From: Cereibacter sphaeroides 2.4.1
Lineage (GTDB): Bacteria > Pseudomonadota > Alphaproteobacteria > Rhodobacterales > Rhodobacteraceae
Direction of reading: 5' to 3'
Length of the DNA: 32,000 nucleotides
Assembly: GCF_000012905.2 (NCBI RefSeq)
Contig: NC_007493.2
Location: forward strand, 3,000,001-3,032,000
Program-made: the position numbers and the translations under genes
In this document: piece after piece, positions 28,953-32,000 of the stretch
Numbering within the stretch: position 1 is the stretch's first letter
Layout: each line of letters begins with the position of its first letter
The notes under the pieces: model-generated
The model's input: only the letters and a program-made list of their open reading frames with translations
Told to the model about the DNA's origin: nothing
The model's database searches: none

Positions 28953-29375
28953 TCAGCCGCTTGCGTCGGCGTCTCCCTTGGACAGGGACGCGGCGATGGT
29001 CCTGTGGAGCTCCGCCACGTCCTCGGGGCCGCTCAGATCCAGCCGCTCGAGGTCGGGCGCAAGGGCGCGAAGTTCCTTGCGGGACACGATTCGCATGGAC
29101 CAGTCCGGGAAGCGGCGCGCGGTGATCGGCTCGAGGTCGAAGGCGAGGATCTCCTGATGCCGGGGGTCGGCAGAGATCAGGCGGAAGAGCTCGTCGCAGG
29201 CCGAGCGCGGCCCTTCGATGGTCTGCACGAAATGCACGCCGTTGTAGAGCAGGATGCCGGTGATGCCGAGGCGCAGGTTCCTGACCCGGCTCGCCCGCAT
29301 GATCTGCACGATGTCCGCCACCGGATCGGCCAGCCGCACGCGGCTTCGATAGGTCAGGGATACCAGCTCATCCAT
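28953..29375 (-). CDS. blrB: short BLUF-domain blue-light photoreceptor (BlrB-like)
   Basis: 140 aa. The BLUF hallmarks are all present: Tyr in LTYRSRV, Gln in FVQTIEG, and Trp/Met in FPDWSM. The length and sequence match my recollection of R. sphaeroides BlrB. Confidence 0.92.
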   Translation of the reverse strand: MDELVSLTYRSRVRLADPVADIVQIMRASRVRNLRLGITGILLYNGVHFVQTIEGPRSACDELFRLISADPRHQEILAFDLEPITARRFPDWSMRIVSRKELRALAPDLERLDLSGPEDVAELHRTIAASLSKGDADASG

Positions 29376-29446: not shown

Positions 29447-30034
29447 TCAGTTCAGGTGCCGGCCGCGGCGCGAGCGGCTGCCTTCCTGCAGGAGATCGAC
29501 CAGCCGCTGCCGCAGCTCCTCGTCGCGCTCGGGCATCCGGCCGGGCGTCTCGATGAGGGCGCGCAGCGCGCTCTCGACCAGCCGGTCGGCCGAGGGCCCG
29601 TCCGGCATCAACTCGCGCGCGTGCAGGCGCAGGTCGCGCACGAGCCGGTCGAGATCGGCCGAGGACGTGCGTTCGGCCAGTTCGATCTGGCGCGCCAGCT
29701 GGCGCAGCATCGCGCGCGCTCCGCAGGGCTTGGCGAAGAACATCACGCGGTGGAACCGGTCGGGCACCGACGTGCGATCGGCCGCGGTGCAGAAGACGAA
29801 GGGCACGCTCCGGTTCAGCAGGCAGTCCGCCAGCTCGTAGCTCTGCTCGGATCCGAGCCGTATGTCGAGGACGGCGGCATCCACCTCGTCGAGCCGGTGG
29901 ATCGCCTCGTGGATGTCGGCGAAGGGTCCGATCACCCGATGGCCCATGCGGCCAAGGTCCCGGGCCAGGTCCTGCGCCTGTATGTGGTCGTCTTCGACCA
30001 CGAGGATGCGAAGGGACAGGGCAACATTCTGCAT
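29447..30034 (-). CDS. response regulator: N-terminal receiver plus ~75-aa C-terminal domain of unknown family
   Basis: MQNVALSLRILVVEDDHIQAQDL...AAVLDIRLG...FVFCTAA...FAKP carries the acidic pocket, phospho-Asp, Thr and Lys of a receiver domain. The ATG at 30034 is internal to ORF 29447..30226. The gene lies 71 bp upstream of blrB on the same strand. Confidence 0.88.
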   Translation of the reverse strand: MQNVALSLRILVVEDDHIQAQDLARDLGRMGHRVIGPFADIHEAIHRLDEVDAAVLDIRLGSEQSYELADCLLNRSVPFVFCTAADRTSVPDRFHRVMFFAKPCGARAMLRQLARQIELAERTSSADLDRLVRDLRLHARELMPDGPSADRLVESALRALIETPGRMPERDEELRQRLVDLLQEGSRSRRGRHLN

Positions 30035-30375
30035 CGAGAACCTCTCGGGACTGATGCGGAATGAACCGGATCGGCGGCCCGAAGTTCCGGGCCGCCGCGG
30101 AGTCCGGTGGATGGCGGGAATGGCGATCTGGCGGCTGCCGCAGGACGCGCCTGACCTGTGCCCCCGATGGCGGCCGGGAAAGTTGACAGCCGTACAGATG
30201 TCAGGGTGGGGCAGGGTGCCGAGCATCGCATCTCATCGGGGCTGGAGCCTGACCCGTCTGTCCGGCCGCAGGGGCTTTCCGCGAGGTGCCGGTGCCTCTC
30301 CGATGACATGGTCCGATCTGAAAATCCACTTCATGCGAGCAGATGCTCTCCGACATGGTCGGAGCCGGGACCGAG

Positions 30376-30828
30376 GCGCAGGGCCGACGGTGCCGTGTTG
30401 CCGGTGTCGGGCCAGAGGGCGAGCCGCGGTCCCGGGGGCAGGGCGAGCGGTTGCCGGAGAGCGGGCGCAGAGCCGCGACGGTGCCGTGTTGCCGGTGTCG
30501 GGCCAGAGGGCGAGCCGCGGTCCTGTGGGCAGGGCGAGCGGTTGCCGGTGAGCGTGCGCAGAGCCGCGACGGTGCCGTGTTGCCGGTGTCGGGTCAGAGG
30601 GCGAGCCGCGGCCCTGTGGGCAGGGCGAGCGGTTGCTGGTGAGCGTGCGCAGAGCCGCGACAGTGCCGCGTTGCCGGTGTCGGGTCAGAGAGCGAGTTGC
30701 GGTCCCGGGGGCCGGGCGAGCGGTTGCTGGTGAGCGTGCGCAGAGCCGCGACGGTGCCATGTTGCCGGTGTCGGGCCAGCGGGCGAGCCGCAATCCCGGC
30801 GGCAGGGCGACCGCGCGGAGCCGCCGCA
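30376..30828. repeat. tandem array, 5 copies of a ~91-bp unit (89+91+91+91+91)
   Basis: Unit starts (GCGCAG) are at 30376, 30465, 30556, 30647 and 30738. The anchor GTTGCCGGTGTCGGG occurs at 30397, 30488, 30579, 30670 and 30761. Scattered substitutions separate the copies, and the 3' third of the last copy is degenerate. Confidence 0.92.
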
Positions 30829-30832
30829 GGCC

Positions 30833-30849
30833 TTTACGCGGCCTTTACG
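30833..30849 (+). promoter_or_regulatory. KdpE-like (OmpR-family) direct repeat TTTACG-N5-TTTACG
   Basis: The hexamers at 30833-30838 and 30844-30849 are 11 bp centre to centre. I remember the E. coli KdpE site as TTTATA-N5-TTTACA. The repeat lies about 80-90 bp upstream of the first kdp micro-ORF. Confidence 0.45.
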
Positions 30850-30925
30850 GAGAAGCGCCCTATCCCGAATGGCGCCCTTACGCGGCTTCGGGCGAGCCTT
30901 CGGCCATCCCATTCAGGAGCGGAAG

Positions 30926-31009
30926 ATGACCGATCTTGCCTATCTCGTTCTCGGCCTCGGAGGCTTCGCGGCCTTTGCCGCCCTCGTGGCGGCTCTCGGG
31001 CGCAGTTGA
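30926..31009 (+). CDS. 27-aa hydrophobic micro-ORF, KdpF-like, upstream of kdpF
   Basis: ATG 30926 is preceded by AGGAG at 7 nt. The product [27 protein letters not shown] is a single TM helix. It shares LGL...F..LVAAL.R with the downstream KdpF. Confidence 0.45.
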
Positions 31010-31021
31010 GGAGAGCCACCG

Positions 31022-31108
31022 ATGTTCGAACCCATTCTGGGCCTTGCGGTTGCCGCGGGCCTCTTCGTCTATCTCGTGGCGGCGCTCGTCCGCCCCGACC
31101 GGTTCTGA
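31022..31108 (+). CDS. kdpF: K+-transporting ATPase subunit F
   Basis: The 28-aa product [28 protein letters not shown] fits the KdpF pattern (GL...YLv.AL..Pe.F). GAGGAGAG lies upstream. It ends 7 nt before kdpA. It is too short for the ORF track. Confidence 0.8.
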
Positions 31109-31115
31109 GGGTCCC

Positions 31116-32000
31116 ATGTCAGAGATCTGGGGCCTTCTCCTCTTTCTTGCGGCGCTGGCGGGCGGCGGCTGGCTGCTCGGCGCCGGCATGGCGCGCCTTT
31201 ATGCGGGCGACGGCCTGCCCGCCGGCCGGCGTCTCCTCGGGCGGAGCGCCCGGCCGCAGGGCTGGACCGACTATGCCATGGCCGTGCTCGCCTTCAATGC
31301 CGCGGGCTTTCTGGCGCTCTATGCGCTGCTGCGGCTGCAGGGCCTCCTGCCGCTGAACCCCGACGGGGTGGCGGGCATGGCGCCCGACCTCGCCTTCAAC
31401 ACCGCGCTGAGCTTCGTCACCAACACCAACTGGCAGGCCTACAGCGGCGAGGCGCAGCTCAGCTACCTCGCGCAGATGCTGGGCCTGACGGTGCAGAACT
31501 TCGTATCCGCGGGCACCGGCATGGCGGTGGGCGTCGCGGTGATCCGCGGCTTCACCGCGCCGAAGGGAGAGAGCCTCGGCAACTTCTGGACCGACCTCTC
31601 GCGCTCGGTGCTCTGGGTGCTCCTGCCGCTGTCGGCGGGGCTCGCGCTCATCCTCATCCTGCAGGGCGTGCCGCAGACGCTGCTGGGCGCCGTGCGGGCC
31701 ACGACCCTCGAGGGGGCCGAGCAGATCATCGCCCGCGGCCCGGCCGCGAGCCAGATCGCGATCAAGCAGCTCGGCACCAACGGCGGCGGCTTCTTCGGGG
31801 TCAACTCGGCCCACCCGTTCGAGAATCCGACGATCCTGTCGGACCTCGTGCAATGCTACGCGATCCTCGTGATCCCGGTGGCCTTCTGCTTCCTCTTCGG
31901 CCGCATGGCGGGCGACGGGCGGCAGGGGCGGGCGATCTTCGCCGCCATGTCGGTCCTGTTCCTTGCGGGTCTGGCCGTCATCCTGTGGCAGGAGAGCGCG
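31116..32000 (+). CDS. kdpA: K+-transporting ATPase subunit A (N-terminal part; runs off the window)
   Basis: My translation from ATG 31116 reads [22 protein letters not shown]...[45 protein letters not shown], the KdpA selectivity-region signature. The frame is open to base 32000. Confidence 0.94.

Follow-up and report, generated by a model that had tools for sequence, protein, structure and literature searches.

On chromosome 1 of Cereibacter (Rhodobacter) sphaeroides, a 91-bp sequence is repeated five times in tandem immediately upstream of the kdp promoter. This arrangement raises the question of whether the repeats regulate the neighbouring genes, encode a protein or small RNAs, switch expression by changing in number, or are a minisatellite. 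We examined the question in a 32,000-nt stretch of the chromosome (the window) and in the orthologous loci of related strains.

Structure and surroundings of the array

The array sits in an intergenic region of ~890 bp, with a divergent operon for a response regulator and the BLUF protein BlrB on one side and the kdp operon on the other. Its distance from the response-regulator start codon is 340 bp. The features are listed by their positions in the window; L numbers identify loci from other assemblies.

28953-29375, minus strand: BLUF protein
29447-30034, minus strand: response regulator, a receiver-domain protein of 195 aa
30201-30375, no strand: unique stretch directly 5' of the array, 79-99% identity among strains
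30376-30828, no strand: the whole 91-bp array (probable minisatellite), defined by Tandem Repeats Finder, 15-mer spacing, unit register, nhmmer unit profile and composition
30376-30464, no strand: unit 1, 89 bp, a boundary unit whose close counterparts are unit 1 of L007, L020 and L021
30465-30555, no strand: unit 2, 91 bp, identical to unit 3 of L016 in the first 72 alignment columns
30556-30646, no strand: unit 3, 91 bp, nearest relatives unit 4 of L016 and unit 4 of L021
30647-30737, no strand: unit 4, 91 bp, nearest relative unit 3 of L019
30738-30828, no strand: unit 5, the 3' boundary unit, nearest relative the last unit of L019
30833-30849, plus strand: TTTACG-N5-TTTACG direct repeat, probable KdpE operator, outside the array and marking its 3' limit
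30927-31009, plus strand: hydrophobic ORF of 27 aa with an AGGAG ribosome-binding site
31022-31108, plus strand: kdpF
from 31116, plus strand: kdpA

Tandem Repeats Finder reported a repeat at 30385-30810 with a period of 91, 4.7 copies, 91% matches, 0% indels and a score of 698. Together with the unit register, this confirmed the five head-to-tail units of the initial annotation, which start at 30376, 30465, 30556, 30647 and 30738 and measure 89, 91, 91, 91 and 91 bp. The exact 91-bp spacing that had been claimed for the 15-mer GTTGCCGGTGTCGGG was also found: it occurs exactly five times (30397, 30488, 30579, 30670 and 30761), against an expectation of 0.11 matches in shuffles, and five occurrences were reached in 0/100 shuffles. 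Pairwise identity between the units of the window array was 66-88 of 91, counted in fixed 91-bp frames. The length of unit 1 is due to a 2-bp deletion near its 5' end (GGGCCGACGG vs GAGCCGCGACGG), and the final ~20 bp of unit 5 are diverged (GGCGACCGCGCGGAGCCGCCGCAG). The array has a G+C content of 76.6%, with a G-rich plus strand (GC skew +0.245).

The internal sub-repeats that had been described for each unit are present but less regular than thought. The second GTTGCCGGTG sub-repeat is exact in unit 2 only; it reads GTTGCCGGAG in unit 1 and GTTGCTGGTG in units 3 and 4, and unit 5 has none. Likewise, AGGGCGAGC occurs twice per unit in units 1-3 only. The 91-bp unit is the product of an older internal duplication of 38+53 bp. 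The entire 91-bp period is repeated and the array shows no unique spacers, so that a CRISPR array was rejected, as it had been in the initial annotation.

The last unit ends at 30828, 4 bp before the first of two TTTACG half-sites (30833-30838 and 30844-30849, spacer CGGCC), which agrees with the boundary given earlier. In the E. coli KdpE site, a 5-bp gap separates direct repeats of 6 bp, TTTATA/TTTACA (PMC3264566). The TTTACG box has the same architecture (PMC3264566), with two 6-bp TTTAYA-like direct repeats and a 5-bp spacer upstream of kdpF(A)BC. Among the 15 distinct sequences of this region found in the loci, the half-sites were invariant and the spacer varied (CGGCC, CGCGC or CGCCC). 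Conservation switched on at the first TTTACG in these sequences; downstream of it they were almost invariant, and upstream they were variable. The suggestion that the box is a KdpE site is thus consistent with the published architecture and with the invariance of the half-sites, and we regard it, from its sequence, as a probable operator. No further KdpE half-sites were found within the array or in the rest of the intergenic region. The architecture of the box and the absence of half-sites from the array place the array outside the core kdp promoter.

The neighbouring genes and the remainder of the intergenic region have features of their own. The receiver domain of the response regulator (29447-30034) scored under the Pfam cut-off (27.9 vs 30.2 bits), its C-terminal region gave a weak sub-threshold match to the PhyR sigma2 domain (PF22029, E=0.0023), and no DNA-binding output domain was recognised in the protein by Pfam. 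A perfect hairpin with a 10-bp stem, CGGCGGCCCG-AAGTTC-CGGGCCGCCG, is located at 30072-30097, ~40 nt upstream of the response-regulator start codon, and the minus-strand sequence GGAAC-N16-GGTT (30088 to 30064) resembles an ECF-sigma-type promoter. The block GAAAGTTGACAGCCGTACAGATGTCAG (30180-30206) holds the palindrome TGACA-N10-TGTCA. The intergenic region around it is variable, but the block itself is conserved among strains of C. sphaeroides and almost conserved in C. johrii; it may be an operator or promoter element. PpsR-type TGT-N12-ACA sites were not found in the intergenic region. A small minus-strand ORF (MKWIFRS...) in 30201-30375 was considered and rejected; its residues change non-conservatively from strain to strain, and in L029 the third codon is a stop. 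On the kdp side, the 27-aa ORF directly 5' of kdpF is kept in all loci including those of C. johrii and is annotated as a 46-aa hypothetical protein in some assemblies. It had no Pfam match and may encode a small membrane protein that belongs to the kdp operon and has so far gone unrecognised.

Distribution, copy number and sequence variation

The unit was found at a single locus. A search of the 32-kb window by nhmmer with the unit profile gave no other copies, and blastn against 72,556 plasmids gave no match. With a 24-base unit pattern, the sole match in the species-representative genomes was one unextended chance match. A 25-base pattern gave one match, at the kdp locus, in a 3.0-Mb contig of a C. 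sphaeroides-type assembly and none elsewhere in the metagenome collection. Overall, pattern scans of genome, metagenome and viral collections returned the same locus and two unextended chance matches (L005 and L024). We therefore rejected a dispersed intergenic repeat family (REP/BIME, ERIC or MIRU-like), since the unit has one locus only in the window, the plasmids, the species representatives and the 3.0-Mb contig. The initial annotation had tied a neutral reading in part to the unit being a generic repeat dispersed over many loci, and this is not what we observed. A mobile element was rejected because no terminal inverted repeats flank the array. Queries on the kdp-upstream locus, on sRNAs named after the neighbouring genes and on R. 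sphaeroides VNTRs returned nothing relevant in the searchable literature; as far as that literature shows, the 91-bp array at the kdp locus is previously undescribed.

Orthologous loci were fetched via exact and homologous neighbouring proteins and then scanned with the unit profile. Their copy numbers are listed below. Several come from draft assemblies, in which repeats may be collapsed, but the values 1, 3 and 5 were obtained from complete genomes, and the units of any one array are not identical.

5 units: the window and nine assemblies with the identical array
5 units: GCA_052246835, GCA_046882885, GCA_046882915 and GCA_003547135
4 units: GCA_900188265 and GCA_009795945
3 units: GCA_003846385 (complete genome)
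2 units: GCA_003359035 and GCA_003547155
1 unit: GCA_003363065.2 (complete genome with johrii-like genes)
0 units: four assemblies of the C. johrii type

The locus with one copy (L029; GCA_003363065.2, CP147411.1) contains exactly one 91-bp unit at ~2350-2445 in an intergenic region of sphaeroides-type layout, and its genes are 90-96% identical to those of the window, a level equal to that of C. johrii. Because it has the same flanks as the arrays, this locus apparently represents the progenitor arrangement. Short stretches on either side of its unit resemble each other (GCCGCCACG... and GCCGCCCGC...). In typical C. johrii, the unit is missing and the stretch 30201-30375 is mostly deleted together with it, yet both flanking transcription units and the kdp promoter are kept. 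A protein search with the KdpA N-terminus toward more distant Cereibacter species gave only relatives of ≤83% identity and fragments.

The C. johrii loci contain a tandem repeat of another kind. In L010 (3761-3994), and also in L025, L027 and L028, a 100-bp sequence unrelated to the 91-bp unit is duplicated in tandem (2.2-2.4 copies, ~75% matches). It derives from the response-regulator 5' region, of which the window has one copy (~30037-30140). The same intergenic region has given two unrelated minisatellites in sister lineages. Both are lineage-specific and resemble each other in type of event and approximate unit length, but the C. johrii copies are unrelated in sequence, fewer and more diverged, and they are located at the opposite end of the intergenic region. 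This second duplication is consistent with a region under weak constraint where duplications arise easily.

All 35 units that we compared were mutually different. Their nearest neighbours were mostly units of other strains, and boundary units tended to match the boundary units of other strains. This indicates that the array is older than the divergence of the strains and forms a mosaic in which interior units have been gained and lost. Unit variants were common to different strains at different array positions, which indicates that the arrays differ by gain or loss of whole units. Unit lengths were 90-92 bp in some strains (89-92 bp overall), with 1-bp indels within units. The flanks of L017 and L019 are 97.7-100% identical to those of the window, yet these loci have 3 and 4 units; copy number therefore changes faster than point substitutions accumulate. 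On the other hand, the array was identical in the nine assemblies that share the intergenic sequence of the window, suggesting that it is not hypermutable on laboratory time scales.

Identity among strains was 94-99% for the genes, 97-100% for the kdp promoter (94% in C. johrii), 84-99% for the array units and 79-99% for the stretch 30201-30375. Conservation at the locus is thus lowest in the array and in the unique stretch adjoining it on the 5' side, and this stretch is fast-evolving and the most variable of all. Within the unit, GTTGCCGGTGTCGGG was more uniform than the remainder, being exact in 26 of the 35 units; binding of this site, instead of common descent, could account for the uniformity. 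The second GTTGC.G..G sub-repeat was among the most variable segments.

Some assemblies showed irregularities at this locus. In the complete genome GCA_009797605.1 (CP047031.1; L001/L011), we noted a 1-bp intergenic indel and a truncated kdpA call (387 vs 551 aa), both of which probably result from sequencing errors. Of the Logan short-read contigs, L008 terminates within the first unit, which shows that the array breaks assemblies, and L009 terminates 80 bp 5' of the response-regulator gene.

Coding, RNA and regulatory functions

Could the array be a coding repeat? ORFs of 191 aa (plus strand), 186 aa (minus strand) and 99 aa cross it, and gene callers predict a 175-aa product in some assemblies. 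Long ORFs on both strands would be compatible with a repeat protein, but such ORFs are expected to arise spuriously at 77% G+C, and none of the three had a Pfam match. Moreover, 91 is not a multiple of 3, and any frame is destroyed by the whole-unit differences and 1-bp indels between strains, so that the crossing ORFs cannot be conserved. The initial view that this is not a protein repeat holds, and we consider a coding function practically excluded.

A transcribed array was examined for structure and for signals of transcription. No Rfam family matched at the gathering threshold and chance-level matches alone appeared at E≤10, in line with the earlier statement that no RNA family was recognisable. 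The MFE z-scores against dinucleotide shuffles were +0.77 (plus strand) and +2.39 (minus strand), i.e. the array folds no better than shuffled sequence. When 27 units, taken from nine arrays, were aligned (A1), RNAalifold drew two consensus hairpins per unit on the G+T-rich plus strand. Changes on both sides were seen in 1 of the 24 predicted pairs. The proportion of paired cells was 97.5% vs 97.0% in column shuffles, and polymorphisms in the plus-strand hairpins mostly kept pairing via G-U; such pairing is to be expected when transitions occur in a G+T-rich strand, and the shuffles show it equally. There was no clear excess over shuffles in the paired fraction (20/500) or in the covariation score (69/500). 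Neither sigma-70-like promoters nor intrinsic terminators were found in 29900-31200. Canonical G-quadruplex motifs were also not found in the array; one motif with loops up to 15 nt was present, without enrichment over the window.

R. sphaeroides has tandem sRNA clusters, and the best comparison is with CcsR1-4 (RSs0680a-d), the cuckoo RNAs, which form 2-4 hairpins with the loop motif CCUCCUCCC in each and have compensatory changes in the stems (PMC4615179). The array shares with this cluster the organism, the intergenic location and tandem units of similar size. Unlike the cluster, it lacks CCUCCUCCC, covariation beyond the controls and an Rfam match; on either strand of 30035-30930, CCUCCUCCC had no match with ≤1 mismatch and one match with 2 mismatches. 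Tandem small RNAs of the CcsR1-4 type, or a repetitive leader or antisense RNA, would agree with the hairpins drawn by RNAalifold and with the existence of the cuckoo family. Against such transcripts speak the Rfam, folding, covariation, promoter and terminator results, the 1-bp indels among units, the lack of the element in the sister species and its location 5' of the KdpE box, outside the expected kdp mRNA. The proposal of tandem sRNA genes in the initial annotation thus found no support, and we consider a transcribed repeat highly unlikely.

A regulatory array would consist of units that carry a binding site, for example the near-invariant GTTGCCGGTGTCGGG, for a transcription factor or nucleoid protein, or it would act as a spacer or insulator of tunable length; in either case copy number would set the expression of kdp or of the response-regulator gene. 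The position of the array favours this explanation, because sequence directly upstream of the KdpE box can influence activator-dependent promoters, as do the 15-mer, which varies less across strains than any other part of the unit, and the differences in copy number between strains. However, conservation within the locus is lowest in the array and the adjoining 5' stretch, one of the sub-repeats is among the most variable segments of the unit, the units have no KdpE half-site, and the period of 91 bp is not a whole number of helical turns. In addition, C. johrii keeps the response-regulator gene and a 94% identical kdp promoter without any unit, and no DNA-binding domain was recognised in the neighbouring response regulator. 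The evidence, in particular the low conservation, the unit-free C. johrii loci and the missing half-sites, leans against the phased binding sites proposed earlier, and we regard a cis-regulatory array as unlikely. A copy-number-dependent role as an upstream module, which is suggested by sequence, mainly by the near-invariant 15-mer and the proximity of the KdpE box, appears distinctly unlikely. That each unit provides GTTGCCGGTGTCGGG as a site for a DNA-binding protein, making the array a copy-number-tunable upstream module of kdp or of the BLUF/response-regulator operon, is very unlikely; if it were true, strains with 0-5 units would differ heritably in the expression of genes for K+ uptake or light response. 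The remaining possibility is a contingency (phase-variation) locus, in which an array that is hypermutable within populations switches the expression of a neighbouring gene. The variability in copy number (0-5 units) that had been anticipated for such an element was indeed observed, and it exceeds the rate of point substitution in the flanks. The switching function, in contrast, is at odds with the identity of the array in nine assemblies, which suggests stability on laboratory time scales. Furthermore, the tract is upstream of an activator site and neither inside an ORF nor between core promoter elements, and its 91-bp unit is far from the tracts of 1-9 bp of classical contingency loci. We consider a contingency locus highly unlikely.

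A probable minisatellite beside the kdp promoter

Our data are best explained by an ordinary minisatellite. The units stand head to tail without spacers, their number is polymorphic, a single-copy progenitor state is apparent in L029, and the array is non-coding. We conclude that the array is likely a single-locus non-coding minisatellite (VNTR) that changes by slippage or unequal recombination and is under weak or no sequence constraint; it is probably neutral.

Intergenic VNTRs of this kind are used in bacteria for MLVA typing, and Burkholderia pseudomallei is reportedly an example with catalogued tandem-repeat loci. The array resembles MLVA-type loci in its head-to-tail units of tens of bp without spacers, its intergenic position, its strain-variable copy number and the point changes between copies. 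It differs from them in a unit that is at the long end of the range and that was built by the 38+53-bp duplication. The MIRU of Mycobacterium tuberculosis are tandem intergenic units of 40-100 bp that vary in number and belong to a family dispersed over dozens of loci. The array is similar to MIRU in unit size, tandem arrangement, intergenic position and variable number; unlike the dispersed MIRU, its unit is present at one locus only.

We propose a tandem duplication of a 91-bp segment that lay 5' of the kdp operator. This first event may have been triggered by the short resemblance of the sequences on either side of the single-copy unit (GCCGCCACG... and GCCGCCCGC...). Expansion to 2-5 copies in the C. 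sphaeroides lineage would then have proceeded via replication slippage or unequal recombination between units. The resulting array presumably has no sequence-specific function of its own. Its sole likely effect would be to alter the distance between the kdp promoter and the upstream sequence by about 90 to 450 bp, and the consequence for expression is probably small.

As it stands, the array matters little and is one more bacterial VNTR. It could be used as a marker for typing C. sphaeroides strains. It also calls for caution in annotation and assembly, because spurious genes of 175 aa are called on it and assemblies from short reads break there. For the neighbouring operon, the locus cleanly delimits the functional kdp promoter, since conservation begins exactly at the KdpE box. 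Should copy number tune kdp or the BLUF/response-regulator operon, the natural alleles with 0-5 units would form an existing series in which to study the effects of upstream spacing on an activator-dependent promoter.
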